20,000 bases of DNA from the NCBI GenBank assembly GCA_010405405.1, contig MU004231.1, forward strand, positions 1,978,645 to 1,998,644. The letters are read 5' to 3'. A program made the translations under genes and the position numbers. This document shows positions 1 through 20,000 of the stretch, one piece after another (the first letter of the stretch is position 1; every line of letters starts with the position of its first letter). This DNA comes from Microthyrium microscopicum (taxonomy: Eukaryota). The notes beneath the pieces are model-generated. The model searched no databases, was not told where the DNA came from, and worked only from the letters and a program-made list of their open reading frames with translations.

Positions 1-949
1 CGTTTGTTCATCGCCATGTCGATCTCTTTTCATGAAGGCATTGGAGGAATGATCAGAAGCGTCATCAATAGAAGTTCGTTCATGTGATTTGATCCAGTCA
101 ATCATCAAGGTGTTCGGTCGGGGAAGAAAAGCTTCTCCAAAATCTGACAAGCAGAGAGTGTTTCGTTGACCATCATTGCCGTTACTGACTACAGTTGACG
201 CCGAAGAAACCACACTGGCTGCAGAATTCAAACAGGTGCGTAGGTGATCCAATTGTTTGAATTGTGCGGATTGTTTCTTTGATGTACGCTCCTTGTTTCC
301 AAGCTGGGTGTTTGATTTCATCTTTTCTTCCATGGAGGCTAGTCGATAGTTCATGTCAATAGCCAGCTCCTGTATCGTTGAATTTACTTGATTCAAAGTT
401 GGGAGCCCAACCTGAAGAGCTTCGCTAGTAGAAGCTTGGTGCCATCTAGTGATTGTTTGGTCAGCAATAGATTCTGGGGTCACTGATATCTGTGTCAAGG
501 ACTTACAACAATGTCGTTTGTAAGGAAACCTGAATTGTATCTTTGTAGGAGCGTATCTGCTGCTGATATACAGCAATTTCATGGGTGGCCGCATGGAGTC
601 TAATGTGCTTTCGCGTAGAGTCTAAGAGATTCACATGCTTGTTGACGCGTACAATTGTGGTCTGAAGCGACTTGAGCGTTCCTTCCGCATCATCCAAAGA
701 CGTTTGAAGATGGCGCCAATGTGAGGTTAGACTTCCCTCAGATCTTAGAGAACTCTTTACTTTCGGTTCATCGATTATGTCTGTAACTTGGTCCAATATC
801 TTCTCGAAGGCCGTGACTTCTTGCAGAAGCCCATTAATTGCTGTCCCAACTAATTTCGTGCCGCTAATAAATTTCTTCAACTCCCAGCCGAGCCCGCTGC
901 AGAGGCTTGCAATGGTGAGCGACGAGACGACAATTGATAAGGGATCCAT
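1..949 (-). CDS. 5' part of a gene encoding a fungal N-terminal (HeLo-like / STAND-associated) helical domain protein; exon 1 949-507, intron 506-446, exon 2 445 to window edge
   Basis: The N-terminus MDPLSIVVSSLTIASLC...LLQEVTAFEKILDQV...IAVYQQQIRSYKDTIQVSLQT matches the 'MDPLSI' pattern typical of fungal N-terminal/HeLo-like domains. The 61-nt intron has a GTAAGT donor, GCTGAC branch site and TAG acceptor. Splicing gives LWHQASTSEALQ...LRTCLNSAASVVSSAST...SDFGEAF...MIDWIKS, open to base 1. The family call is from recall of the motif, not a database search. Confidence 0.75.
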
Positions 950-1659
950 GAGTTGGTAAGTTTATCAAAAATTCCATTGCAAACAGATCATTCCAAGTGA
1001 TGAAAGCTGGACTACACTTGATGAACAAGAACGTTTGACGCAAGAATCAGATTTAGTTGAACTTCTCCTTAGCTCAAAAGTTAATGATCATCTCGAAGAT
1101 AGTGGAGCCGCTACTCGAGGCGCTATAGATAGCGCGTAAAGGCTGGATGGCGGCCCGCGCCTCGATCTAGGCTGTTTTGGGATGTTTATGTTTCAGATTG
1201 CTGCATGTCGAGCGTTCAGCGCTTGTTTAAGCTCTGCCATTTGCGCTTGGCTTTGCGGCGCCTTGGGTCCTGCGAGGCGATCATTCACTCACTCATTCCT
1301 AATGGGCCAAAATGCCATCAGCCGACTTGCTTTCAAGCTTTACTGCAAGCCTACCCAGAACAGAATTGTGTACTTGGTGCTAATGGCGATCGCTTAGAAA
1401 GTAGAAGTACTTCCTAGTAAGATGTCTTAGATATGGTCTTTATTGGCCAGTCAGACAGGTGCCGTGCTTATACAGACTCTAACAAAACTAAAGTTTTTCT
1501 CTATCACCTATTAGTGCCTGTTTATGCAGCTTTATCATGTGCTGTGGTTGACCTCCAGAGTTCCTCGTCTTTCGCAACATACTTCAGCTCTGGCAGAAGC
1601 GCAACAGTGTAACTTATACATCTAGACAAAACCGGATCGCAAAAGCTCAGAAAACGAAA

Positions 1660-3758
1660 ATGGCTGGCCAGCCTTCTATCTCTGAGCAAGCAAGCCCACA
1701 ATCTCCTACCAGTCCAATACCTGAGCCGGATACTCAATCAATAACCTCAACTCGTCAATACTCTGATAATGGTCTCAGCATAAACAACGACACATATTAT
1801 GCAGAAACAAAATCTTCAGGCTCTTTTCAGACTTTCTATATCGCCTCGCAGCAACGAAAGTCTATAGGATCAAAACCTTCCGAATCATCTGCACAAAACC
1901 ATGAACACTTGGAGATGGACCAACCCGGCTTCTGGAGAAAATGGTTCCTAGAATGGTGGGGAATTGAGCTTCTGAGCTTAGGCTTCAGCGCACTATCTAT
2001 GGTTATTATCCTGATAGTACTTGCGCAATATGATGGCAAAGGACTACCTCAATGGAAACTCGGCATTTCAATAAATGCTTTTATATCCATCTTTGCTGGA
2101 TTTACCAAATCGGCTCTTTTACTCCCCACTGCACAGGCTCTTGGCCAGTTGAAATGGAATTGGTTTACCAAATCTCGCCCTATGCACGATTTTGAGCTCT
2201 TGGACAGTGCTAGTCGAGGGCCTTGGGGCGCTCTACTCCTCCTTGGTCGCATGAAAGGAATGTGAGTTACATCTTTGTTAGGTTCGTTCTTTAAAGAGTT
2301 GACTAATTCCTTCAAAGTACACTGGCGTCCATTGGGGCTGCTATAATTCTGCTTTCTGTACCGCTTGATCTTTTCTTTCAACAAATAGTGCAGTTTCCTA
2401 CGGTCTGGATTGTATCTGGGGATGCAACCCTCGCTCGGACAATCTATTACAACCCGGTTCCAAATGAATACTATGTACAGGACGATACTGTTTACTCGCC
2501 AGATCCTACTACTGATTCTGCGGTTGAACCACTTATTTGGTCAACGGGCAATCCTCAGCAAGTTCGTTCCAGCTGCCCCTCTAGAAGATGTACGTTTGAA
2601 CCGTTTGAGAGCCTTGGGGTGTGTAGTTCATGTATCGAACTACCCGACTTACTCAAATTTGGTGTTCGAAATGTTGTTGACAATTGGTCTGCGGATTCGG
2701 TGGCTAACCCAAACTTGGATAATCTCACAAACACGCCATCTGTCGGATGGTATTTGGAAGCACCTGGTCAAGATCCGATCCTGATGGCAGGATATTCTTA
2801 TCAGTCGAATGATACCTTAACTCCCAAGTCCATCCTCAGAGGAAGGATTGAACCCATGCGGGAAATGTTCACCAGACAAGCAAGATTCCCCGGTGGGACC
2901 ATCAACTTTCACAACATTACAAATCCATTGGCAGACTTCCTCATTGCATTCAATCTGGGAATTTTAGGTAGCTCGGATAGTGGGATATTTAATCAGACGC
3001 CCGTTGTTCACGAATGCGCTCTGTATTGGTGTGTACAAACCATACAGGCTCGCTTGGAGGGCGGGATCATTGCTGAAAACATCACTGCCACCCGCCAGCT
3101 TGTTTCAAGCCACGCTGATGATCCGTGGGACCCGGATACTAAGACGTTTCTGACAAATTTCACACTCACAAAGCCTGACTTACAGAACCCGAAGGGAGCG
3201 CTATTAAACTTCGGAGTCAGCAATATCACAACTCGCACAACGATCCAGGTTTCAGAAATATTCTCTCCTTCTAGCTGGACAGAGTTCAATGGTGACACTA
3301 CGATGGCGAAAGTGAATTGGAGAGGCAACCCATTCTACAATCGTCCCGTTGCAAATTCAGCGAACCCATGGAGCAGTCACAACGATCCAGTCGCGCATGT
3401 TGCAGCGATTGCTGAAGAGATGAGCAAGGCAATGCGGAACACTCCCCAAGGAGCGACTGATACATACGATCTTGTGATTGGAAAAGCATGGGAAGAACAG
3501 ATCCGAGTGCATATTATATGGGCTTGGATCGTACTGCCAGCGGTGCTAATGGCTATAAGTTTTGTTTTTCTGGCAGCGACAATGGCTCGAAGTTCAAGAG
3601 ATGATTTCATTGGAATTTGGAAGACTTCGGCGTTAGCAATCTTGTTCAACGGTTTTGGGGATGATGTACAGAGGAAGATAGGAGGCTCTTCTACGGAACG
3701 TTTAGGACAAGCCAAAAGAACGGCTAAAGATTTGACCGTCAGATTAGAAGAGGACTAG
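1660..3758 (+). CDS. DUF3176-family multi-pass membrane protein, paralog 1 (680 aa; exons 1660-2261, 2318-3758)
   Basis: Family motifs LGQLKWNWF, DSASRGPWG, DLFFQQIV, CPSRRC...LGVCSSC, ECALYWC and WKTSALAILF are present. The 56-nt intron GTGAGT...GACTAAT...AAG joins the two ORF-track ORFs in frame (KG-I-TLASIGAAII). There are four hydrophobic segments. Confidence 0.85.
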
Positions 3759-4322
3759 TGAGAAAACGCAATATCTTCAGTCTGAGTAGCTTAACAAAAA
3801 CCATTTCAGCAGACATGTCTGATTTGCTAAAGTTGGCCAAGTGGCATTGAAAATCATGCAGATGTCCAGTTCTGTTTTGGGAACGTGGATGAGGCTGACT
3901 GCGGCGATGTAGGCGCTTAGCCAGAAATTCCATCTGAGGGGCCGCTTTGGAGGCGTCTGCAGGATGCAGCTGCATTAGTCCTCTGTAAAGTAGTACTTAC
4001 AAGGTATAGGTTCCTTCAGGTAGACCGCTTGAACCAGGCGGCTATGCATCTATAAACTCCAATGCGGCTACAAGGCAATGTTGCGATGGAATGAATAATA
4101 GTGTAGAGATTCTTTCTTGTTTATGCGTAAGACTCCTAGAGCAATGTTCTATAGCATACTGTGCAGATTGCAAAGAAAGGAAGTGGTTGACCTCGCTGCT
4201 TTCTGATTTGCTTTAGTATAGACTGGTCTATTGGATCTTGCATTTCTTCCATCATTGTCTTTTCACTCCTTATGCTGGTATACTACAATCTGATCATTGT
4301 GCTTTGATCTCTATTCCAGAAC

Positions 4323-6485
4323 ATGGCCCACCTTTCTGTTCAGAGTCAGACTGTTCTAGATGAGCATCTCTCCTTATCCCCAAGGACACCAGATTTAGGT
4401 CAATTCCCTTCGCCAGTCAATTACGGATCAGTCACACCCACGTCAGAACATCATCCTTTTTCAGAAAGGAGTTCGACCCAATTCCAAAAATCCTTCGTGG
4501 AGAAGTTCCAGAATACGTCGGCAAACTTCACCTTCAACTCCAAAGGAGACGAACAATTATCACAAAGTTCGGCAAGCCATACCGTCGGAAGTCGACTTCA
4601 GCGAGAAATTGAGGATGGTTGGCTATGGGAAGCTCTCAGCTGGGTGATAAGTGCGGGCTGTATGCTAGCACTAACTGTTCTTCTGGGGCTTTATAACAAC
4701 AAGCCTTTACCGGCAAGGTGGCCTTCTGGCATCAGCCTGAACGCCGCTATATCTGTACTTTCTAGTATCGGAAAATATGCTCTCTCAGTCCCACTGGAGA
4801 ACTCGCTTGGCCAGCTGAAGTGGATCTGGTTTCGAAGCAAAAAGACAAAAAAATTGATCGATCTAGAAAGATTTGACGAAGCAAGTAGAGGACCATGGGG
4901 TGCTTTTCTTCTACTGTGGCACATCAAAGGAAAGTAAGTGTTGAGCGATTCAACGATCCTTATACTTGTTGCTAAAACGAGGAACAGAAAACTTGCCTCG
5001 TTCGCCGCCGTAATAACCATCTTATCTCTGGCAATGGATCCCTTTTTCCAACAAATTGTTGCATATCCGCAAAGGCCAGGCGAATTCGGTAAAAGCACGA
5101 TTACGAGAGCCGTAAAGTTCTTCACTCACGAAAACCTCGAGTACGCCAATGGAGGAAACTATAGTATTTCAGATGAGAGTATGTGGAGTGCTATGGAAAG
5201 CGCATACTTCGGTGACGGTAAAGAGTCAAAAATTGACGCATTCTGCCCTACATCAAACTGCCAATGGCCAGAATTCCAGACTTTGGGAGTTTGCAGCAAA
5301 TGCCATGACGCCTCCGAGCTGCTTCAATTTGGATGCATGCCAGAACGAGGGGAGTGGTTGACCCAGAGAAGCACAGCAATGCTGGGAATCAATCAAACAA
5401 TCAGTACTGCACCAGTCCTATCTTGCGGATGGTTCTTCAATGCCAGCTCTGAAGATCGTATGCTGATGAGTGGATATGTCTTGGATAATACCACATCGCC
5501 CCCAAGTCCTGGAGAGGCTCTTTTCATACGCTCTTTAGCTACTGCTACACCTGCAGATGCTGACAACGTCACTTACTGGGATCGATCCTACTATTACAAG
5601 AATGAGTCAAATGCCTTGCCATTTTGGGACTTTCTGGTTGTGATGAACAAAAACGTATCTTCGGTGTATCTACATGAACGCCCAGAGGCTGCTGAATGTG
5701 TTCTGCAATGGTGCGTCAAAAACATCACTGCGTCGGTCATCAACGGAGAGTACAAAGAGGAGATTGTCTCGACATTCATCAACGAGACTCAGGTTGGCTA
5801 TCCAGCTCGCCACGAATCCAAATGGAGGCCGCCTGGAACTTCATACATGCATGGTGTAGCAGATGTTATCATCGAGCCCCCAGGACAGGATGAGCAATTC
5901 TTCGTCCCAGACTATACGGTGTTCCAGACGGTCAACCCTTTCTACTGTTTTATTCCATCATATATGACAGTGGCAAATATCACAGCAAATCCACTTATGC
6001 GAGTTGATAACAAGAATACAGGTGGAATGGACAATTCCTACATACTGAACTTCAATCTCACTGAATGGTCAAAACCAAGCAACATATCCGTCTGGTCGGA
6101 CATAATGGCAACTGCAGTTACAAACACTATTCGAAGTTTTCCAAACAGTTCTGAGCCAGTTCCCGGTTTCGGAGGACTGGAGACTTATATTCACATTCAG
6201 TGGGCTTGGATATCACTGCCGGTGATCATATTATTTGGCACGGCTATGTTACTAATCTGTGTCATTATCACCGGACCAACAAAACAAGAAGGAGGAGTGT
6301 GGAAAACCTCTCCGCTTCCAATGTTACTTCATGGACCCAGTTCACAGCTGCGAGCAGATTTTGGAGATGCATGGAGTATGTACGATATGAGAAGGAAGGC
6401 CAGGCAGGTGGATGTCGTCCTCAGGGAAGAAGTAGATGGATTAAGGTTTCATCCTGATAAGAATGGAAGTTATGCTGAGAAATGA
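4323..6485 (+). CDS. DUF3176-family multi-pass membrane protein, paralog 2 (702 aa; exons 4323-4933, 4988-6485)
   Basis: Motifs LGQLKWIWF, DEASRGPWG, DPFFQQIV, CPTSNC...LGVCSKC, ECVLQWC and WKTSPL are present. The 54-nt intron GTAAGT...GCTAAA...CAG is at the same codon position and phase as in paralogs 1 and 3. Confidence 0.85.
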
Positions 6486-7767
6486 ACGGGTTGTGTACTA
6501 ACCAAGATAACAAGATCTGTACATAGGTAGTTCATTATTCTTTCTGTTCGCTTGATGTGCACATGATGAAGCAGGTCTACATTACAATATCCAAGATGAA
6601 GCGACTTCTGGAGTTTTTCATCAACGGTCATTCGCTTCAAGATTTTGGTCAGCTGCAAGCGAAGTGGAAGTCGTAGGGATTGGCCAGCACTTAGAACTGA
6701 CTGCAAGCATAATGCAAGTTCTTGTGATCAGTGGCCAACTGGATCAAAAGGCGATGTTCCTGCATTGCAGGCTGCAGTATTTCTGCCATGCGATGTGTGA
6801 GAATATTATGAGTAGAGTGCAGGCTCCTCACTGCCAGCCTCTGAAGTTAGAAAGGACGGTTTGGTGCAAAGTCCTTACAATTGAGCTCAACGATGGCGAA
6901 AAAGGGTAGGTGTTTACCAGCATAACAGGTAGCATCGACTTCTCCAAGTGAGGTGGGCCGAAAGCTTGAGCCAATGGCAAACATCGCGTTATCCGCCGAG
7001 TGAAGGTTCCAAAAATTCCTCAAACACTTCCCTCTCTCTGGGCGTAAAAAGGCCGCTGAAGGGGCCGCTGGAAATCATGCGAAGGCGGGGTTTCTTAAGG
7101 AAAAAGAAGCAGACAAGCAGGTTTTTAACCAGGCGGATAAAAATATCTCAAGGGCGACCGTCGAATCCGGGGGTTGGGCTGTGCGAGAAGAGCTGCCAGT
7201 ACTGGGAACCTATCAAAGCGCGTTGGCCGGCGCGTACGTGCATATGCAAAGCCACTCTGTTTGCCGTGATTGGCGATGTCTCGTTTAAGCTCATCGAATA
7301 ACAAAGTCTGCGTCTAGAAATCCAAGTTGATTTGCTCTTACAGCTCCAACTCTACCGAGAAGCAGGACTCATGATCCAAGAAGTGTCCGAGCAGACTGCC
7401 CGCGATGTACATATTTTACCGCTTCGAATGCAACTCCGCCCCACGCGATGCCTGTTACGGATGTCAGATAGGCCGCGGATGTTGACCACCTGCAACATTG
7501 AACCTACAGAGACTATCCTCGCCGCAGGATCCTAAATGCAACCAATTTGCAAGATGCGGGCTGGACCTCATAGGCATATCTAACTGCATGTCTACCCCTC
7601 CCACCCTGTTGTTGGTGTTGTACTCGGGTCCACACTTGCAATCGTGATCTTCAGTAACCTGTTGTAGCACCAAATTAGCTTCAAGAGGTCGATATTCATC
7701 TGTTTTGTTCTTTGCCATACCCATCTCTATCACTGATCCACATCACCCTGAGTGGTGTTGCTCTACC

Positions 7768-10469
7768 ATGGTCGATTCTCAATCAAGCAACATTAAACAG
7801 TTTATTCGAAGTGGAAAGTTCTCAAAACGTCTCAACCTGAACCGACCAAGAGCACCAGAGCCATCCCTTTCCACCATTCACTCCGCGGGGTCAGACGAAG
7901 AAGATGGCAATTCCACTGACATTGAGGATTTTCCGGAGGAGAAGAATGGAGTAGTGAAGGCGGTAGCAAGGGAGGACAATGCAGCCGATGGCTCTGAGTC
8001 TACGAACAATCCACAAGGTGGAAGGTTAGTCACTGGTCAAAGACCACTTCTATCTGGTGTTCTTTCCAATATCGCCAACCTCGCCAACCGGAGGTCAAAT
8101 ACCAGTCGGACCTCTACAGCAAGCCGGTCAAGTCGGACATCAATGTCCACACGTTCTTCAATTGCTTCTTCTACTGGCGGGCTGCCAACCATAACAGAAA
8201 TCCCTCCTCTGCCCGGGCTTGTTTCCGATCACGGTTCATTGCCGCCAACATCAGAACCACCCTCAACTCCGCCTTTAGAAGACCACATTATGCCGGTAAT
8301 ACCTCCCCATCCAGGTTTCACCCCAGTCCAGCAATGCGATAACAGCGACACTCATTCCCAAGGTTCAACACTTGTGGGATCTCCACCTCGTCACAACGGA
8401 AACTCTCAGATACCTCCATATTCTATTTCTGATGTATTTGCAAACTCACCACCTCCTCCTATGCCCTCATGGCCATTGCCATCAGATACAATGAGCGAAA
8501 AGAGTGGCAAGAGCTCTCTACCTTTAACAGCTTCGCCTCACTCTTCGCACTCCTTTGCCTCAACTCCAGCCTATAGCCCACCCTCATATTGTCAGCCTTT
8601 TGGGGATAGTAATGCCCCTGGCTCAAGATTCTCATGGCATGTTACACCAGTCGATCGGGCTCGAAACTGGTTTACTATTTGGTTCGTAGAATGGTGGGCC
8701 TTTGAAATCATTAGCTGGCTGTTTAGTGCAGTTTGCATGGCGATTATCTTGGGCGTTTTGTTCCGTTATAACAACAAAGAAATACCCCATTGGAGAATCG
8801 GCTTTACTCTTAATGCTTTCATTTCAATACTCTCGGGGTTCGCCAAATCTGCTCTTCTTCTTCCGACGGCAGAAGCGCTCGGACAACTCAAATGGAATTG
8901 GTTTACCAAGAAATCTAAAGCCATGCTAGATTTCGAAGTCCTTGACAGTGCTAGTCGCGGACCTTGGGGCTCTATGGTGTTGCTCGCACGAACTAAGGGA
9001 GTGTAAGTCTGACATGGTTGACAACCTACCGCCGATATGCTAATGTACTTTACAGAACCCTTGCCTCAGTTGGTGCAGCCATTATCCTGCTCTCATTACC
9101 GCTTGATCTATTCTTCCAACAGATTGTCCAGTATCCCAACGTAATGGTCGCACTGGGAAATTCAACTCTCACAAGATCGGTGTATTATGACCCTATTCCA
9201 GAAACAGTCTTGCAAAGCGGCTCTACGATCACGAACCCGAACGCGCAAATGGTCGCCAACCTGTGGGAGATGATAACTGCCAAGCAGCCTTTGCTCACGT
9301 CGCCTAACTTCACTTGCCCAACCAGCCAATGCAATTTTCAACCATTTGATACCCTTGCGATATGTAGCTCATGCACAGCGGTACCGGGCCTTCTTGAGTA
9401 CGGCTGCAAGAATGCTACCAATGAGTGGATGGCTGACGCATCTACTGACCCCGACGACTTTACTAATACAACTGCCTGCGGATGGTATCTCAATCCTCCA
9501 GGACAAACTCCCATCTTGATGAATGGATATGCCTACAACGCTTCTACTCAAACGCCTGGAGAAATCCTTGTTTCAAGAATCGTGCCATTGAGAGACATTT
9601 GGACTCGAAAACCCGTCCTTCCCAATGCCACTATCAACTATGGGGACATTATCAATCCGTTGGGCGATTTCATTATTGCGTCATCTCCGGATGCCAAGTC
9701 TGTTCTTTCAAACAAGCCTCCTGAAGTTATCGAATGTGCAATGTGGTTTTGCGCGCAAACACTCAGGTCTCAGATTAAAAATGGACAGCTCTCAGAGCAG
9801 ATTCTGAAGACTCAAGTAGTACCTCCAACGAATACTGGTAATCCTTGGAAGACATCTGCTTGGTACGACAACTCTTTCAACCTTACTCTTCCAGACTCCC
9901 GCAGCTCAAGTGGCTCATCTGTGTATGGAACTGGGAATTGGACGGGCCGAACCACTTTGGACATAGTACAAGATTTCGCTCCTTCGACCTGGACCAGCCA
10001 ATCCAGCCAGGATTCAACAATCGCAGGGAAATTCAATTGGAGATCAGGTACGCCAGACGTGAAAACGATTCCTTTGGAGACCAGTCCCTGGATCACGACT
10101 TCGAATGTTACCCATAGCGTGACAACAATGGCAGAAAGCATGTCCGCTGTCTTGAGACGAACTTCACATGGCTACTCAAATCAATTTGAGTTTATCCAAG
10201 GAATAGCCTACGACGTCAGGACTCACGTTCAGATACGATATTTCTGGATCATCCTACCTGCATGTTTGCTACTCTTCAGTTTTGTTTTTTTAATGGCGAC
10301 AGTCCTCAAGAGCTCGAAAGATGATAAGAAGATTGGCGTTTGGAAGAATTCGGCACTCGCGGTTCTGTTCAATGGTCCATCTGATGACGTTCAAGACCGA
10401 ATGGGCAGTCAGCTCAAGTTAGGCTCTGCAAGGGAGAAGGCACGGAATATTCGAGTGACGTTGGATTGA
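7768..10469 (+). CDS. DUF3176-family multi-pass membrane protein, paralog 3, with long Ser/Pro-rich N-terminal tail (882 aa; exons 7768-9002, 9056-10469)
   Basis: The first in-frame ATG is at 7768 in good context (ACCATGG). Motifs LGQLKWNWF, DSASRGPWG, DLFFQQIV, CPTSQC...LAICSSC, ECAMWFC and WKNSALAVLF are present. The 53-nt intron GTAAGT...GCTAAT...CAG splices in frame (KG-V-TLASVGAA). Confidence 0.85.
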
Positions 10470-11019
10470 TAAACCAATGGCTGCTTGCTTTCATCCGAAA
10501 TTATGTAATACCCATGAGACATGTTTATACGTTCAAATATTATACTTCACCTTTCTTAATTACGGAGTACATCATGAGACCATATTGACCTAGGCGAGTC
10601 CTCGGTTTACGGAATGTCTTGCAACGTCGAGGTTCCGATTATGGACTCAATTCTATTAACAATTAGTAGAAACACATTGACACACCTTGACCGCCGAGGA
10701 AATAGGTAACCGTCTGAAAGTCAGGAAAAAGGCCAGGCTTGCTTTTCTACCAATAAAATCTGCCAAGCGTACGGTCATCGAATACGGCAAGTCAATCTGC
10801 ACCGGCACCAGCAGCAAATCACTACGGTCATGCTAAGAGAGGGCTGAGGTGTTCAAGATATCTCGACCTGGTACGCCAGGCCGAAATGTAGCATATAATT
10901 GAAGTAATGAGTTGCCTCGTTCCATTCCTAATTTGAGACCAGTCCACTATGACAGAAGAAATTTTTGAGCTAAAAGATGTATCCCAACCAAAAGTATATA
11001 CAGAAATTTGTTGACATGA

Positions 11020-11075
11020 AAGAATCGAAGAGTCGAAGAATTGAAAAGTCGAAGAATTGAAAAGTCGAAGAGTTA
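11020..11075. repeat. Degenerate 8-bp minisatellite (~7 units, consensus AARARTYG) downstream of the KEP gene stop
   Basis: Read directly: aagaatcg aagagtcg aagaattg aaaagtcg aagaattg aaaagtcg aagagtta. Confidence 0.7.
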
Positions 11076-11220
11076 AAGATGTGTACAGTGAACGGAGGTT
11101 GGTCGAAAATGCTGGACTCGAGGAGCTCCTGGCTCTTAAGTCTGAATGTATAAGCTGCTGACACGATTAGCTCAATCAATGGTTGACAAGGCAGTATCAT
11201 CTGAAAACTCACGATCGTCC

Positions 11221-11654
11221 TCAGTATCCGCTTTGCATGGCATCTTTACGCTTCTCCTTGTAGCCACTTTGCATGGCATCTTTACGCTTCTCCTTGTAGC
11301 CACTTTGCATGGCATCTTTGCGCTTCTCTTTGTAGCCACTTTGCATGGCATCTTTGCGCTTCTCTTTGTAACCACTTTGCATAGCATCCTTGCGCTTCTC
11401 CTTATAGCCACTTTGCATGGCGTCTTTGCGCTTCTCTTTGTAGCCGCTTTGCATGGCATCTTTGCGCTTTTCCTTTACAAAGTGCTCTGTCTGCATATAT
11501 GTCAGTATGCATGGTTCGTATGTCTGGACTTTCAACTTACGCCTTCACTTCTGACAGCCATCGGAGCTATTGTACTGATCGAAGAGACAGGGGCGGCACT
11601 AGCTGTCCAGGCTAGAGCAGCGGACAATACCAGAAGAAGATTGACTTGAACCAT
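11221..11654 (-). CDS. Secreted Kex2-processed repeat protein (KEP) / fungal peptide or RiPP precursor, 127 aa; exon 1 11654-11541, intron 11540-11491, exon 2 11490-11221
   Basis: Spliced protein: MVQVNLLLVLSAALAWTASA|APVSSISTIAPMAVRSEG-TEHFV-(KEKRKDAMQSGY)x7-stop. It has a hydrophobic signal peptide with an A-S-A cleavage motif. The 50-nt phase-0 intron has a GTAAGT donor, ACTGAC branch site and CAG acceptor. Every repeat has a KR dibasic site, and all differences between repeats are synonymous in this frame. Confidence 0.92.
11224..11475 (-). repeat. 36-bp x 7 coding tandem repeat (KEKRKDAMQSGY)
   Basis: Seven contiguous 36-bp units, consensus AAR GAR AAG CGY AAR GAY GCY ATG CAA AGY GGH TAY on the minus strand. 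Confidence 0.97.
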
Positions 11655-13171
11655 AATGAATCTGACTTAAAAATGGAATGAATAGTTTGTGGAATACCAA
11701 GATAAATACTGAATGAAATGTACAAGGCTGAAGGCGGTTGATGTCAATTAGTTCAAGAACATGGAGTCCGAGGATCTTAAGTAGGTACAAGTAGCACGCT
11801 ATGGCACATGGGACAAGGCCAGCTGCTTGGTGACAGGACCACCGATAAGTCCACTAGATATCACATCCACAGCGGTTAGAGAGTTCACATACGAGGCAGT
11901 AATCAATCAATCGGAATGAAAATGAACAATGGCGTCATGCGGTACCAACGGCTAACCAGACTACCGCCTTGAAGTGTGATATCAAGAGTTGAATCGCAGC
12001 CAAGGTCCCAAGTTCATGACTACCTATTGCACAGATCAAGAAACGCAGCAGAAAATTACTTTGGACTCTAAAGATGTGTCTCAAGAGACGCCGTGATTGT
12101 CTTGTTCTGCATGAAGAACTCGAAATAATTGGTGCAATACGAACGCGATTCGTGAATGATGGACTAGAATGTTGCCACAAGACCAGGCTCAAGGTGATAT
12201 CGAGCCAGGCACAGCATGGCTTGCAGAGGATCGCACGTTGAATTCGTGGACTCTACAAATCAGGGCGTTCCATTGGCCTGACTGGCCTACAAAATTGCTC
12301 CATGTCAAAGAAAAGTGTACATTTCCACGCACCTTCCAAGGAGCTTTGGCCAGATATCAAGCATCGCGGAAGCCGGAAGGCCAATGCGTGCGCCCTGACC
12401 TGATGTTAGCCGAGGTGGCCGAATTGTGATTCGTTACCAGCCTTCAAAAAGTCGAGAAACTACGAAATTTGCTTAGAAAAAGATGGAGAGTGGTGATCAA
12501 ATGGACAATGTGGCGGCAGGGAGGTTGTGAAGAAGCTGGAAGCATCACAGCCAAAGCGCAACAAGGCTGCATGTGTTCCCTAACCATCAACAAGTCGCAA
12601 GCTCCCATGGCCAGCCTCACAGCAGTCCGATTTGCGGTCTTGAAACTCTGACTGGTGGACAGATCCTGGAATCGGGTCATCATTGGCCATGTCATGAATG
12701 TCAAATCTTAGCGTCCTGCAGGCTAGACCTGTGCCTTGCCGCGACTTGGATGCGTTCGCATACAGGCTCTGAAAGTAGAGCCTCCCTGAACACGCGCACA
12801 TGCAGTCTTTCATTGATTTCGTGATTGCCGATGTGCATCGTGAGTATGCATACGCGCTTACTCATCATCAGGTGAATGTCGTGAAAATGATCACAATCAC
12901 ATCCAGGATTCTTGGATGCGCTCGCCTTCCAGCCACGGAGACACTAGGGAAAGATGTGGATGAGCAAGCCATTTTTTACGCCGGAAGACGGCCACCAATT
13001 TCCACCAAGTGGGCCACGATGGCAGCTGGTAATCGGCCCGCGACGACGGGACATGCCTTCAGCCTACGGGAGCTCGAGTTGCAAAGGAGCTTTGACGAAG
13101 GCAAACGTCAACTTAGAGAGTGCTCGCCGATCAAAGCTCGAGGTCAGCCTTGCGTTCATCACAGTGTTGGC

Positions 13172-13360
13172 ACTCGAGTTAGTATAGTCGAGTACTAGTA
13201 CTAGTACGGCTAGTATAGAATTATTTTAATACTTACTCAACTAGACTAGTCCAATCAAGATCCAGGACTAGTACTAGTACTATACTAGTCTAGAAATATA
13301 TAATAAATACTCTACTAGTACTCAAATACTAGTACTAGTATTACTAGTATACTAGTACTA
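13172..13360. repeat. Cluster of short palindromic TACTAGTA/AGTACT-type repeats, likely RIP-mutated subterminal repeats of the transposon
   Basis: Many overlapping copies of agtactagtac / tactagta lie immediately inside the GC-to-AT transition. Confidence 0.6.
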
Positions 13361-14806
13361 GTTTTATATATAGATTAGGGTTAATATTATAGGGTTATTT
13401 TTATATTATTTAATTCGGAATTTTACGTAGATTACAATGGTATTATTAGTTTTTTAATAGCTAGTCTTATTCTATAGTTATTATACTTTAAACATAAAGT
13501 TATTTAATTATATTATATTTTTAAAGGTTATTTAGTTATATAGTACTTAATATTATAAATTACTTAATAATATTTTAGATTTAGGGTTCTAGATTTATAA
13601 TACATACGAAACTATAAAAATTAGACCTAAATATACTAATAATTAGTTTAAATACTAATAATTAGAAGTTAAGAGTATAAAACAATTAAGAAAAAGAGAT
13701 AAATCTTAAAAATTTATATAAATAACTTAATAGTAGTAGATTTTAAGATAAATATATAAATTATTATATATTTAGATTCATTAAAGTATAAGGAAAACAG
13801 CCCTAGAGTTAGTTTTTTAATAAGTCGCTTATATACTAATATATAGTAGTATTTAAGAGTTTTTAATAAATATATTAATAAAAGTTTAAGGTTTATATTT
13901 TAATACTAGATAAATAAGGAGTATTATAGGTTATTAAAGATCTTATATATATATTAGTATTATATATATACTATAATCTAGATTTAAGATCTTATCTAAG
14001 CTTAATAAAGATAAAAAATAATAATAAAGATAATAATTAATAATAATAATATTCTAAAAAGAAATTATATTTAAGACTTTAAACCTATATTATAGTAAAG
14101 ACCTTAGTAGTAAGTATATATTAGTCTCAACTATATTATATAAATATACTAAAATAGCTATATAATCTTAAATCTAAGATTATATTTAAGATTTATAAAA
14201 TAAGAATTTAAAATATATATCTTTTAAATAATTATTTTATAACTTAAATATAAGTAGCTACATAGTAGTAATATATATAAATATATATACTAAAATATTC
14301 TAGATTTTACGATCTATCTAATGCTATAGGTCTCAAAGCTTATTCAAGTCTAGTTTTAATACTATTACTAATAATACTATTTTATTTTTAATAATTATAA
14401 TTTACTTAATAAGCTAGAATAAGGGTTTTGCTATAGTATACCTAAAGTAAAAGGTATAACTATTATAATTATCTATATTTTAATTTATTTTATAGTATAC
14501 TAACTACTAATACCTATATTTAAGTAATAAAATTCTATATATTCTTAAAATCTTTATTTATTTATATTATATTTAATTCTTTTATTCTACTCTTTATAAT
14601 ATACTATTAACGTCTAATTTCTATATAAATTCTAATGCTACTAACCTTATATCCTATAAACTACTATCTAACCCTTTATTCTAATTTAAATAGTCTACTT
14701 TCATTTAATACAAATACTTATTTTAAGTTAAAACAACATTTTTTTATTTCTTTTATTTAAATACAATCCTAACTCTACTAACGCCTAAATAACAAATATA
14801 AACAAT

Positions 14807-17152
14807 TTAACTCCTCTAATAATTACTTTCCTCCTCGCTATCACTATCACTATCACTACTATCCTCTTCTAGTAAATATAATAAAGACTTTTATAGCTCT
14901 TTAATACTAGGCATTTGCCAGTTTTTTAACTAAATAATCCATTTAGAAGTTTCAGCTAAAAGCTTATTTCTATCATTAGAAATAATATTACCGCCAATAC
15001 TAAATATACTTTCAGCACTAGCTAAAGTAACAGGTATTATTAAGTATTTCTTAGCTAAGTAAAATAAAACAAGAAATTCTATTTGTTTTATATTCCAGTA
15101 TTTTAAAAGAGATATTTTAGGATCAGTAACGTGTACTTCTCTTAAATAACGAACAAATTCCTCTTCTATAGGAGTATTCTCACTAATTAGAATAAAAAAC
15201 TCGTTTTATTATTTATTTAGAATAATAATAAGAATATTACTATTTTAAGTACCTAAAGAACTAGGATTTAGCTTTCTAAAAGCTATATAATACTCGTCTT
15301 CAAATAGTTTAGATATATTACTTAGAATATCATCGTAGTAATATAATATACTATAAGGCATATTTTTAAAATACTTTGTTTTATATCTAGGATCTAGAAT
15401 TAATACTAGAATAAAAGGTTTTAACTTTTTTACCTATTCTAGATTATAAATCTTACAAAGATAGTACTCTTCTAGCTTTTTAATACCTACTTTTATAGCT
15501 TTAACAAAGTATTTACGCTCTAGATAATTAGCTAATAAAATAGATCTAACAGACATTAAAAATTCAAGCATCTTTTCTTCTAATTTATTAAATAAAGAAT
15601 AAATATATAAAAGCGTTCAATTTAATATAGTATAAATTTGCCCTTATAGAGTAACTATAGGTACATCAAAAAACTTAAGAATATCTTTTAAATTCTTTAG
15701 TACTAACTAATTAGCTTTATTAAAAGTAAACTTCTTTTTAAAGTTTTTATCCTTAGTATTTATAAAGACATATTCAACGCATAATTTAAGCTTAAAAAGA
15801 CACTCTAAAGTATAATACATAGAGTTCCATCTAGTATTATTATCTATAGGTACTTTAGTAATTTATACCTCTTTAGGAATTAATCCTTATTCAAGATAAA
15901 GCTTTCTAGATAATTCAAAGTTTTTTTAATATTCTATCTCGTATTTAATACCCTTTACTACTCTTTTAAGTCTACCTATAAGACTTTTAGAAGCTATATT
16001 ATCTAGAATAGCTTCTAGTTCAGCTAGTATAGTATTTACATTAATAAGAGTAGCTCTTTCTCTAGCAGATTTTATTTCTTTATCATAATTAACTAAAAAT
16101 ACTCTTAAAACAGTTTTAGCAACTAGATTAATTATATGCGCAACACATCAAATATCATAGAAATCTACAGTAGAGCCCTATAGTTCTTTTTCAGCTTTTA
16201 GCTATTCAATAAGTATAGTATTATTACTAGCGTTATCTCACAAAAAACTAATAATATTATTAAGACTTAAATCAAAAGACTTAATAATTCTATCAAATAC
16301 ACTATAAAGATAAATACTAGTATAATTAGAAGTTAATCTTTCAAATCCTAATAGCCTATACTATATTTTACAATCTTTACTAATATAAACTACTATAACA
16401 CCTAAAAAGGCATACTAATTAGAACTACTAGTCCAAGCATCTAGCGCAATTACAAAATAATCATTTCTAGACACTACAGCTTTTAATTCACGCTTTAGCT
16501 TCTCTTTAGCAGTATCATAAATAGAATATAGTAAATTCCTTATATTTTTACAATTAATTATAGGACTATAACAATTATAATACTTTAGTAGTTCTTTAAA
16601 AGAATTAGAACTATAAGCATTAAAAGAAAGGTTATTTTCAACTATAAATTTTACTATTAAGTGCATAGCACCTTCGTTAGTAAATTCCTAATTAGTATTA
16701 GCTCTTACTCGTTTATTACTAGTTATAGCTATAAAAAAAGGGGTATTATTACCTTTAGATTTAATTCTAGCGCGATATTTCCTAATAGTCTCTTTATTAG
16801 TTTCATCGTTCTTATTTAAAGTAACCATTTTATAGGCTGCTTTATAGTATTTAATAAAGTTAGAGGTTTAAAAACCTTCTAATTTAACTATAAGACTATA
16901 GGAACAAAGAGTATATCTAACTCTAACTTCTCTATGCTTAGTAACATCAATAGGAAGTAGTTCTCTAATAAATAGCCCATTAGAAAGAGCATAAGCTTTA
17001 GAATTTCTATCATTTAATTAAAAGTGCTATTTATTATACTTATAATAAGCATAACTAACATTACTAAAGATATTAGACGCACTATCTCCAGGCACTATAG
17101 AATTAGCATTTAATACTTAGCTAGCTCCTAGCATATTATTACTATCCATCAT
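14807..17152 (-). pseudogene. RIP-inactivated hAT transposase (~780 codons)
   Basis: Minus-strand translation gives ordered hAT motifs: a degenerate BED finger (Y[C]TLC...SNFIKY[H]YKAAY[H]), FIVENNLSFN, ALDAWTS (catalytic D), DNASNN, CVAHIINL (CxxH), NTRWNSMY, ILDPRYK, the C-terminal dimerisation domain LKYW...LAKKYLIIPVTLASAESIFSIGGNIISNDRNKL, and an acidic SDSDSDSEEE tail. Many premature stops are present. Confidence 0.92.
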
Positions 17153-17533
17153 TTTAAAGAATAGTAAACTTCTAAAAGAAAGAAATCTATAGAATAATAC
17201 TTAAAGCTAGATAAGCAAAAGTAAAGAGACAGTTCTTATTATTTATATTAATAGATAGATAGTATAAAATAACTAGTCTTAAATACCAAAACTAAGTATA
17301 GCAAAAAATAAATAAGAAAATATTTTTTTTTAATTTTAGAGATTTTAAAGATTTTTAGATATTTTTTTAGATATAAGTAAATCTAATAGCAAAATTACTA
17401 GAACAAGAGTAAACTAGATACAAGATAAATAATCAAAGTAAATAGAAAAGCTATAAAGCTATAATTGAAATAAAAGCTTAAAAAAATACTAGAAAAATAG
17501 TAAATAATCTAAATATTCTAATAGTAGAATTAG

Positions 17534-17824
17534 CTAAATAAACTAATACTAAAGAACAAGAGCAAATAAAAGCTAGAGGCTATAAAAGCTAATCCTAAGA
17601 ATAGAATAGTATAGAAATATATTATATAGCAATAGCTTTTATATAAAAAAACACTTAAAAAGTAGTTTCTAACTAGAATTTCTAGTAAAATACTAACTAA
17701 ATAAACTAATGCTAAAGAGCAAAAGCAAATAAAAGCTAGAGGCTATAAAAGCCTAACCCAAAAAGGGAATAGTATAGAAATATATTATATAGCAATAGCT
17801 TTTATATAAAAAAACACTTAAAAA
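17534..17824. repeat. Imperfect direct repeat, ~128-bp units at 17534-17661 and 17697-17824
   Basis: Both copies read ctaaataaactaat.ctaaaga..caa.agcaaataaaagctagaggctataaaagc...gaatagtatagaaatatattatatagcaatagcttttatataaaaaaacacttaaaa. Differences are mostly G/A and C/T transitions. Confidence 0.85.
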
Positions 17825-18631
17825 AAAAAGTAAAAAAGTCAAAAAATATAAATACTATATAGTAAGTATAAAAACAAGATTTAGGTAGTAAGAAGAAGTA
17901 GACTAGCTACAAATAATACAGAGAGTAACAGCTATAGATAGCAGTCTAGCTCACAGGGGGGGGGAATGTCTAAAAAACCAAGAATTCTAAGTAAAATCCG
18001 CCTCTATAAGTATACACACAACGCTAGATTAACACATACTAATCACCATCATATTCAGCAGGTTTAGAGCTACCAAACGCCATTAAGATTACCTCTTTTA
18101 GGCCAGTATTGCAAAAGTTATAGGTAATAATAATAAGGAGTAATATTAAAACTATAAAACAGTCTATTATAATAGAGTAAACGCATAGTAATAAACACAG
18201 TTTCAAGAGGCTAGACCCCATAAAACAACGCTAAACAGGAGTATAAACACCAAGAGTTTTAATAGTAAATACATTATTAACCCTTTTAATAATACCATTT
18301 ATATAGCTTGTTTACTTTATAACAATATTACCCCTTATTATTATTATACATAACTTTCGTAATACTAGCCCAAAATAGGTAATCTTTACGGCGTTTAGAA
18401 GCGCTAAACCTACTAAATACAATAGTACTATTTAGGTCTTCATCACGAGTCGTTATTATATATATATCCTTCAGTTACCCACAAAGAACTTACTTTTCAA
18501 CAATCCACCCATCACTTCTACTTTCCTATTAAGGACTACATTTCAGTAGTATCTAGAAGTAGCCTTAGAGGCTATTTCTACTTATCTTTTACTTTATTCT
18601 ATACAATATCTCTTAGTAAGAATTCTTTTTC

Positions 18632-18655
18632 TTTTTTTTTTTTTTTTTTTTTTTT
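18632..18655. repeat. Poly(T) tract, 24 nt
   Basis: Read directly. Confidence 0.9.
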
Positions 18656-18777
18656 ACTTATTAACTTTCTAGTCTCTATACCCAATCTAGTATACTTTTA
18701 TACTAGTTTTTAGTACTATTTAAATTAGTAAATTCTTCTCTATTAAATAGTATAGCTTTTATATTTTTATTAACCTC

Positions 18778-19788
18778 ATAGCGTAAGTTATCCATTCCTT
18801 TTTAACTTTTTTTTTTTTTACTTATTATTTATTATAGAGACGTAGCAACCGCTAGATATTTCAAAAGTAAGTCCCCCCTACTCCTCATTATAGCCTCAAC
18901 TAATTTATATTTTTTTATAGAGCTTTCCCTCAACAATTCCCATATCAAACTACAAAGATTCTTAAATAAATTCTTAGGTTACAAAAACGCCCTTTTATCC
19001 AAAAATAAATTAAACTATAATTCTTAGATACTACAACGTAAATAGGCAGGAAATCAGGAATTTAGATATATTATTTATATTCACCAAGAGTATAATCTAC
19101 GACGTGTATATCTCAATTTCTTACCCCTTTTAAAAGGAAGAAACGTTAAATCTTTTATAGTTTATTTCGTCTTAGAAATTAGGCAAGTTGATTACAAAGC
19201 TATATTCTTACATAATAGTAAGGAAACTACTATTCCTATTACTTACAAGCCTATTGCTATCTAGTCTTCTCGTAGTTCTAAAATAGAACTATCTTTACCT
19301 AAATTGATAATTAACTAGAAAGGTCTCAAAGCTAATTAGTCAGAAGCTACTTTTAAACCAGATCCTATAACACCTAGGTAAGCCCTTTATACTTCTTTTT
19401 ATTTAAATTATATACTAACTCTTTATAGTGGTAAAGATTATATACAAAAAGTATATAAATCTAACCCAAAATAGAATTCTAAGCTAAATGCTTCTCACGC
19501 TACAGAACGTTAAATTAAGCATTAAAAGCTACTAAATAACTATGCCCTAGCGAAGAAGGAACGAGTAGCTAAACAGAAGCTAAAGCATCTTCTTTAGAAG
19601 GTTAATAATATTACTTTTATTTACTTTATTTTACTAATTTTTAATAGAAACTAAAGCTTAAAAAAGCTATAGATTCACAAGAATCTAGCCCTACCCCTAG
19701 TACTACTTCTAATTCTACGTACATAGATAACGCTAGTATTAATACTTCTAATCTAGATATAGATTACGACCCAGATCGTTTCTTTTAG
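18778..19788 (+). pseudogene. RIP-inactivated five-exon gene of unknown function (~267 aa); exons 18778-18782, 18838-18866, 18921-19377, 19429-19600, 19648-19788
   Basis: Four 47-55-nt introns have GTAAGT/GTAAGT/GTAAGC/GTTAAT donors and TAG acceptors, and introns 2-4 have ACTAAY branch sites. Intron phases join into one continuous frame: [M]ADVATARYFKKLSLNNSHIKLQRFLNKF...DIDYDPDRFF*. The start appears as ATA (ATG after RIP). The 151-codon exon 3 has only five stops, all TAG. Confidence 0.7.
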
Positions 19789-20000
19789 TTAAATTTCTAT
19801 ATTTTTTCATTAAAGTTAGGATTTCCTTACAAAATTGCTTACATAATTAAAAAAAAATATCTACTATCTTCTAGAGCTAAATTTTCTTATTTAAACGCTA
19901 TATTTATTATATCTTAACTCTTAGTATTACCTATAGTATTTAATAAATAAGTTTTTTTAAAATTAATAATAAATATAAAAAATAAGAAGTAAATAAGAAA

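Follow-up and report, generated by a model that had tools for sequence, protein, structure and literature searches.

Organization of the locus

A 20,000-nt stretch of the Microthyrium microscopicum genome (assembly GCA_010405405.1, contig MU004231.1, positions 1,978,645 to 1,998,644 of the forward strand; hereafter the window, in whose coordinates positions are given) carries a tandem array of genes for DUF3176 (PF11374) membrane proteins and, facing it, a gene for a Kex2-processed repeat protein (KEP). Here, we describe this gene pair, its recurrence at other loci and its possible function. The three DUF3176 genes are co-oriented on the + strand within positions 1660-10469 and consist of two exons each. 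The first, g1 (1660-3758; exons 1660-2261 and 2318-3758), encodes 680 amino acids (aa) and has a 56-nt intron (GTGAGT..AAG). It is followed by g2 (4323-6485; exons 4323-4933 and 4988-6485) with 702 aa and by g3 (7768-10469; exons 7768-9002 and 9056-10469) with 882 aa, which include an N-terminal Ser/Thr/Pro-rich tail of about 300 aa. In all three genes the single phase-2 intron of 53-56 nt lies at the same place. The models are letter-for-letter identical to the database proteins P0001 (g1), P0099 (g2) and P0048 (g3), the first of which is listed as a hypothetical protein of M. microscopicum. They match PF11374 with E-values of 2.7e-34, 3.4e-35 and 1.6e-33 and hidden Markov model (HMM) scores of 118, 120.9 and 115.5 bits for g1, g2 and g3, respectively, all above the gathering score of 27 bits, and exon 1 alone also matches. 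The most divergent paralog is g2, which has a long branch in the tree and an exon-2 part with 25-27% identity to g1 and g3.

The KEP gene (11221-11654, - strand, 127 aa) is the immediate neighbour of g3. The two stop codons, at 10469 and 11221, are separated by a spacer of 751 bp (10470-11220), which holds both 3' untranslated regions (UTRs) and a 16-nt tandem repeat (11020-11071). An initial annotation of the window had predicted three co-oriented DUF3176 paralogs that end about 750 bp from the stop codon of a convergent gene, the latter encoding a signal peptide plus seven identical KR-delimited peptides. The gene models, the PF11374 matches and the length of the spacer agree with this prediction, and the peptide gene is corroborated by its model, its repeat array and the synonymous-only variation described below. 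The same annotation had seen no gene for UstYa, a tyrosinase or a transporter. Indeed, none of the 16 scanned open reading frame (ORF) translations of the window matches DUF3328/UstYa, tyrosinase or transporter families; around the KEP gene, the window reaches 11.2 kb to one side and 8.3 kb to the other, 7 kb of the latter being AT-rich and untranscribed.

The KEP gene and its peptide

The KEP protein consists of a hydrophobic N-terminus, a short pro-region and seven identical KDAMQSGY units, six of which are followed by KEKR. Signal peptide and pro-region are encoded by exon 1 (11654-11541) and the seven units by exon 2 (11490-11221), with a 50-nt phase-0 intron (11540-11491) in between. The predicted secretion signal is a hydrophobic stretch within residues 1-24 (Kyte-Doolittle scan), followed by Ala-x-Ala. 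On the DNA level, Tandem Repeats Finder detected an array with a period of 36 nt, 7.0 copies and 91% matches at 11224-11475 (- strand), corresponding to the seven repeat units that encode the core peptide. With seven identical units of 8 aa, the protein lies well within the range of KEPs, for which at least three near-identical units between dibasic KR sites are expected.

Comparison of the six full units revealed 8 variable nucleotide columns out of 36. All of them are third codon positions and none changes an amino acid, while each of the five other frames through the array contains 1-8 variable residues. Since all variation between the copies is synonymous, the minus-strand frame is the coding frame and the peptide has been kept identical by selection, which demonstrates purifying selection on the KDAMQSGY core. 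An antisense ORF of 167 aa (11146-11649, + strand) also runs through the repeat array and could be taken for the gene by an annotator; according to the synonymous-site test it is not the selected frame. As judged from its sequence, the precursor would be processed by Kex2, and cleavage followed by Kex1 trimming is expected to yield KDAMQSGY, either bare or with a KE tail.

A search among the 48-156-aa proteins of a collection of 5.8 billion proteins gave no homologue of the KEP protein at E ≤ 0.01. According to a local phmmer run, the protein would score an E-value of 1.8e-43 if it were present in this collection. As it is missing despite being detectable, the KEP gene appears to be unannotated in public proteins. 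The cores themselves, being so short and variable, are unsuitable as queries for sequence searches.

Transcription and splicing of the four genes

RNA evidence was taken from one public run (X1), the only one with the region, which contains 0.84 of the sampled words and whose kind was guessed. The contigs of this run omit exactly the predicted introns (2261>2318, 4933>4988, 9002>9056 and 11490>11541, with GT..AG or CT..AC ends), and X1 therefore holds spliced RNA of this organism. Long contig pieces differ from the window in 0-1 letters. The contig of g1 spans 1529-3763 without 2262-2317, that of g2 4133-6928 without 4934-4987 and that of g3 7527-10943 without 9003-9055. Thus, all four genes, g1 to g3 and the KEP gene, are transcribed in one sample. 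The contig word depth, a poor measure of expression, was about 58 for g1, about 60 for g2, 637 for g3 and 20,000-32,000 for the KEP gene, which is a sign of strong transcription of the latter. With the g3 contig reaching position 10943, the convergent transcripts of g3 and the KEP gene may abut or overlap.

The KEP transcript has an additional intron in its 3' UTR (11154-11213, - strand), which begins 9 nt past the stop codon. Its joints are 11213>11157 or 11154, and the contigs thus show the use of two alternative acceptors at a distance of 3 nt. Upstream of the KEP gene, the stretch 12007-12673 is transcribed as well (bin depth about 756). None of its four scanned ORFs has a Pfam match, and it could represent a long 5' extension, a non-coding RNA or an unannotated small gene.

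Recurrence of the gene pair in metagenome contigs

Metagenome contigs with DUF3176 genes were retrieved using only an alignment of the exon-2 part (A1), which covers transmembrane helix (TM) 3, the ectodomain, TM4 and the tail. A1 consists of 36 rows, namely the three window paralogs and 33 of 47 database matches. The scan returned 597 pattern matches, leading to at least 10 confirmed stretches in at least eight loci. Loci with the same sequence were merged (L003 with L008, L004 with L005) and L001, which has 29 bp of downstream sequence, was dropped. This left six independent loci with at least 500 bp downstream among the matches listed, including the window.

In four of these six loci (the window, L002, L003/L008 and L007), a convergent gene for a protein with signal peptide and dibasic repeats follows 224-751 bp behind the DUF3176 stop codon. 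The individual stop-to-stop distances are 751 bp in the window, 415 bp in L002, 484 bp in L008 and 224 bp in L007. When all 43,576 bp were scanned with looser settings, ORFs with repeats and dibasic sites turned up at these four places only. At L006, a convergent signal-peptide gene is located 263 bp away, encoding one KR site and a single Cys-containing core. This small gene (771-1064 of the contig, - strand) has a similar leader, one KR site and an 18-aa tail with two Cys, directly followed by the stop codon, which suggests that a repeat array can be reduced to a single unit.

The initial annotation had been concerned that one locus could reflect chance adjacency. To put the recurrence into perspective, we used the 7878 KEPs in 1461 strains, about 5.3 per strain, given in a published survey (Umemura, 2020; PMC7329392). 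Assuming about 10,000 genes per genome, the probability that the immediate downstream neighbour of a gene is a KEP gene is in the order of 0.001 or less. In contrast to this background, three of the five further independent loci among the matches listed show the same arrangement, in contigs that were fetched by the ectodomain part only. This recurrence excludes chance adjacency as a general explanation, and we regard pure chance at one locus as exceedingly improbable. Because the pairing recurs in unrelated contigs and in two deeply separated clades, the association of KEP and DUF3176 genes is real and conserved.

The two clades are resolved in a maximum-likelihood tree of 49 rows, which consist of the exon-2 parts of g1-g3, L001-L004 and 42 of 188 fetched proteins (L005-L008, being duplicates or fragments, were left aside). 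In this tree, g1 and g3 belong to one clade (100/99 support) and L002, L003 and L004 to another (100/100). Along the tree, g3 and L002 are separated by about 2.7 substitutions per site. Apart from the DUF3176 gene, the loci have no DNA that is alignable with the window, except for short leader matches of the small convergent genes. These are weak tblastx matches with 40-44% identity over 25 aa. Moreover, the window gene and the L007 gene have a phase-0 intron between leader and repeats in common (50 and 52 nt, respectively). Based on the leader matches and the common intron, the KEP genes of the loci are probably homologous, with their cores wholly replaced.

The cores read KDAMQSGY in the window, QEFFDNDVG in L002, GDLGNGGSDGGY in L007 and are of the type Q..GELVGDFGPVN in L008. 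Those of the window and L007 end in Tyr, whereas the cores of L002 and L008 are without Tyr. Counted by codon positions 1, 2 and 3, the variable columns number 0/0/8 in the window, 0/1/10 in L002 and 0/0/12 in L007. Judging by this distribution, the cores are under selection, and they are entirely different from one locus to the next.

Structure and conservation of the DUF3176 proteins

An AlphaFold2 model of g1, calculated with 54 relatives, reached a predicted local distance difference test (pLDDT) value of 82.3 and a predicted template modelling (pTM) score of 0.73. It starts with a disordered N-terminal tail (residues 5-87), followed by helices at 91-124, 138-168, 203-222 and 602-628, a helical cytosolic segment (175-198), a beta-rich domain (229-597) and a helical C-terminal tail. 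Overall, the model is a four-helix membrane bundle with a beta-rich ectodomain of about 380 aa, and the ectodomain modelled alone (65 rows) gave a pLDDT of 92.6 and a pTM of 0.92. The architecture matches the topology first proposed from the sequence, a cytoplasmic tail, 3+1 TM helices and a large Cys-containing ectodomain with many sequons. The N-glycosylation sequons are indeed concentrated in the ectodomain, which holds 8 of 9 in g1, 13 of 16 in g2 and 9 of 11 in g3.

Six Cys are conserved across the DUF3176 family, one pair of which is missing in g1. Here, residues 317 and 343 (window positions ~2664 and ~2742) are both Val in place of a near-invariant Cys pair that is present in g2 and g3. 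The paired loss suggests that these two Cys form a disulfide. As the conserved Cys and most of the sequons are located in the ectodomain, an extracytosolic orientation of this domain fits, and we infer a location of the protein at the cell surface.

The Foldseek comparison that had been suggested along with the initial annotation was run against the PDB with the whole model and with the ectodomain. It gave nothing at E ≤ 0.001, with TM-scores of at most 0.11; rows for herpesvirus gB and EFF-1 were rejected as noise (TM-score below 0.12). VIA-align returned only generic four-helix bundles for the whole model (Z ≤ 11.1, below the bar for helical bundles). For the ectodomain, the best Z in the exhaustive search was 3.4 and none of 48,161 chains reached Z ≥ 5. 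Hence, as far as the predicted model can be compared by these two tools, no solved structure with the fold of the ectodomain was found. A tetraspanin-like protein has the same order of TMs and loops, but no tetraspanin is among the 50 VIA-align matches listed, and we keep this likeness as an analogy only.

The mean pairwise identity is 48.5% for the TM1-TM3 core, 38.0% for TM4 plus tail and 29.5% for the ectodomain. In terms of sequence conservation, a sensor would be expected to combine a conserved membrane core and a variable outer face in this way. The family comprises 7387 clusters (50% identity) at E ≤ 0.001, and 588 at E ≤ 1e-30. A search for longer, fused DUF3176 proteins found only two, of 1318 and 1340 aa, with PF11374 alone. 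The former, P0187 (source name Stemphylium lycopersici), has two PF11374 stretches in one chain. It may result from the joining of two tandem genes in one gene model, or be a genuine protein of two units that has the eight-helix layout of CWR-2.

Possible relationship to DUF3433 and CWR-2

We searched the ESM Atlas for neighbours of P0001, leaving out PF11374 clusters. Among the 30 nearest named clusters, 19 have PF11915 (DUF3433), with a score of 0.94 and 181 of 256 shared features. Superposition of a DUF3433 cluster model on residues 121-680 of P0001 covered 451 residues with TM-scores of 0.50/0.54 (one tool, without an alignment). Further neighbours of P0001 in the Atlas have PF28465 (DUF8406, 58% of members, score 0.95) and PF28351 (CLZ1_N, 10-18%), which could mean that ascomycete membrane proteins of this build form a wider superfamily.

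CWR-2 of Neurospora crassa contains two DUF3433 domains. As described in the CWR-2 literature, it is an allorecognition membrane protein with eight TM helices and four extracellular domains, two of them small and two large (330-355 aa). Its partner gene, cwr-1, is linked, and the allelic specificity towards the cwr-1 product changes when the large domains are swapped. One half of CWR-2 corresponds to one DUF3176 protein in its order of elements (TM, small outer loop, TM, cytosolic loop, TM, outer domain, TM), and in both cases a fungal membrane protein with large variable outer domains is encoded beside the gene of an extracellular partner. The systems differ in that CWR-2 has eight TMs and two units, whereas the window proteins have four TMs and one unit, and in that the linked partner is a chitin-active AA11 monooxygenase there and a repeat peptide here. 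Haplogroups, in linkage disequilibrium with the partner gene, and trans-acting fusion arrest are features of the CWR-2 system. Taken together, these model-based likenesses make a kinship between DUF3176 and DUF3433/CWR-2 possible.

Comparison with other peptide systems

The dikaritin clusters for ustiloxin, phomopsin and asperipin-2a (PMC7329392) resemble the window in several respects: a signal peptide, KR-delimited identical cores with Tyr, and a conserved neighbour gene for a membrane-anchored protein, UstYa/DUF3328 there and DUF3176 here. In contrast to dikaritins, the partner belongs to another family with another fold, and the cores of two related loci are without Tyr. A dikaritin cluster was rejected, since the scanned window translations include no DUF3328 match. 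The HXXHC motif is a feature of UstYa/DUF3328.

With the yeast alpha-factor and its receptor Ste2, the system shares a leader, Kex2 sites and tandem identical peptides kept by selection. However, the repeats of the window begin with Lys-Asp and are without the X-Ala/X-Pro spacers that Ste13 removes, and the candidate partner is modelled with four TM helices, unlike the seven-TM G protein-coupled receptor (GPCR) Ste2. Both the four-TM model and the lack of Ste13-type spacers led us to reject an alpha-factor/GPCR pair. In ascomycetes, pheromone genes are not known to lie next to the receptor genes. Basidiomycete mating loci and bacterial quorum-sensing cassettes keep a peptide gene together with its sensor gene and show a fast turnover of the peptide. 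We draw on these pheromone/receptor loci and peptide cassettes as analogies only, given their unrelated families and chemistry; a mating-type or quorum function is a feature of those systems, of which there is no sign here.

Flanking regions of the gene cluster

The G+C content is 44-50% in window positions 1-13000. The adjoining block 13001-20000 is AT-rich (19-28% G+C), with many short tandem repeats, one ORF of at least 80 aa and no cover by RNA contigs. It looks like a repeat region degraded by repeat-induced point mutation that borders the gene cluster. At the opposite end, a gene on the minus strand (1-978) continues past the start of the window. The protein has an N-terminal PF17111 (PigL_N) domain (E 3.7e-08), and the intron at 446-506 of the gene is backed by RNA contigs. 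We take PF17111 to be the domain formerly described as the HeLo-like N-terminal domain of fungal STAND proteins; going by this presumed family history, the gene would be a neighbour of the cell-death or nonself-recognition type.

Possible functions of the KEP-DUF3176 pair

The pair persists over about 2.7 substitutions per site, as opposed to a single loss seen at 58% identity, which argues for selection on the pairing. We consider it fairly probable that the pairing is kept by selection and thus reflects some functional link. As to the nature of this link, we tentatively favour a conserved two-gene module of peptide and surface sensor, in which the link would be peptide sensing. The KEP precursor would be cut by Kex2, releasing many copies of one short hydrophilic peptide, and the DUF3176 glycoprotein from the convergent gene would be the dedicated membrane partner of this peptide. 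It would reside in the plasma membrane as a four-helix bundle with a fast-evolving, disulfide-bonded, glycosylated and beta-rich ectodomain. This ectodomain may recognise the peptide from the linked gene, and the signal could then be passed on via the conserved membrane core, the conserved cytosolic loop and the tail. Such a mechanism would resemble CWR-2, the possible two-unit relative, reading the product of the linked cwr-1. For M. microscopicum, we propose that the sensor gene has been triplicated in tandem. Of the functional readings, a receptor-like role is the most plausible one because of the possible kinship with DUF3433/CWR-2.

Several observations weigh against a peptide sensor. Both binding of the peptide to the ectodomain and signalling are inferred, and no computation supports the binding: a complex prediction for the g3 ectodomain (436-806) with three peptide repeats gave a score of 0.00 and no call by the tool. 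All 36 scanned relatives have PF11374 only, without any other Pfam domain, signalling domains included. Furthermore, with the 7387 clusters of the family set against about five KEPs per genome, most DUF3176 proteins must be without a KEP partner. The reading is weakened by both, the lack of a known signalling domain and a family too large for the available KEPs. Even within the window, g1 and g2 are without a KEP gene of their own. In L004/L005, a SAP-domain gene takes the place of the KEP gene, and the DUF3176 protein, although 58% identical to that of L002, has lost its KEP partner. The sample consists of the six independent loci among the matches listed and is compatible with inherited gene order. 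Co-regulation rests on one RNA sample, and the convergent orientation rules out a shared promoter. Finally, the link to DUF3433 comes from one tool without alignments, and the PF11915 HMM matches, even at E ≤ 10, none of four single proteins (P0001, P0048, P0099 and P0187) and none of the 64 members of alignment A4.

The neighbourhood could also be inherited without a function, as an ancestral adjacency that has not yet been broken, with proteins and peptide acting independently. The small number of loci would allow this, as would the speed of the ectodomain, because of which the protein distances may overstate how far apart the species are; in addition, three positive contigs (L002, L003 and L008) stem from records with neighbouring names. 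Nevertheless, the pair is found in two well-supported clades at the distance given above, it was lost once within a clade, nothing else around it is alignable, and its position and orientation are unchanged although the cores have fully turned over. We rate bare inheritance as somewhat unlikely. A distinctly unlikely alternative is a secretory-pathway partner in the endoplasmic reticulum or Golgi, whose lumenal domain would modify, chaperone or escort the precursor in a UstYa-like manner, making the DUF3176 protein a RiPP-like tailoring or export factor of a new type. KEP genes are known to cluster with the membrane-anchored lumenal DUF3328 proteins (22% of the 7878, mostly as direct neighbours; PMC7329392). 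Two of the cores end in Tyr, and disulfides and sequons suit both a lumenal and an extracellular domain. However, Cys, Gly, Pro and Trp make up most of the near-invariant residues of the ectodomain, the others being one Glu and two Arg. There is no conserved His-, Asp- or Ser-rich motif of the catalytic type in it, and neither Foldseek nor VIA-align gave a fold match to any enzyme. Conservation is best in the membrane core and in the cytosolic segments and not in the large domain. It is mainly the absence of a catalytic-looking motif, together with the two related cores of L002 and L008 without Tyr, that weakens an enzymatic role.

Self-protection, in which the DUF3176 protein shields the producer from its own abundant peptide, would explain why the genes for a secreted product and a membrane protein are linked, and also the very high contig word depth of the KEP gene, a rough measure. 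But the cores are short, hydrophilic, without Cys and charged instead of amphipathic, and thus do not resemble a membrane-active toxin, which makes this explanation highly improbable. The idea of heteromeric channel subunits, raised by the initial annotation, found no support of its own.

Implications for fungal peptides and DUF3176 proteins

That a peptide precursor gene is kept beside the gene of a dedicated partner is a known kind of arrangement; here, the candidate partner is a DUF3176 protein. In the searched literature, DUF3176 is named in one work only, which mentions it just as the fusion partner of NDT80 in four Fusarium proteins, and neither PF11374 nor IPR021514 is mentioned. The text and three supplementary files of PMC7329392 contain no DUF3176, PF11374, Microthyrium or core motifs, Figure 6 of that paper (HMM profiles near KEPs) standing outside this portion. 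As the KEP gene is absent from the protein collection, surveys based on annotated proteomes would miss the pairing.

Beyond mating pheromones, a few toxins and the dikaritins, we know of no functions or receptors of KEPs. In Fusarium graminearum, none of six single KEP gene deletions led to a phenotype, and no peptide or protein has yet been identified as the ligand of the GPCR Gia1 (PMC10589705). The KEP-DUF3176 pair offers a testable partner for both orphans, in that DUF3176 proteins are candidates for partners, and perhaps receptors, of orphan fungal peptides. Further points of interest are the ectodomain, for which no similar solved structure was found, and the possible link to the allorecognition receptor CWR-2. 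More speculatively, and with some doubt on our side, DUF3176 and DUF3433/CWR-2 could form a superfamily of non-GPCR surface receptors of filamentous ascomycetes that combine a four-helix bundle with an ectodomain fold not seen in any solved structure. Their ligands would be encoded next door, here as a diffusible peptide released by Kex2. If true, the thousands of orphan KEP peptides other than pheromones would be given their first receptor class, and fungi might possess a kind-recognition or quorum signal based on peptides.

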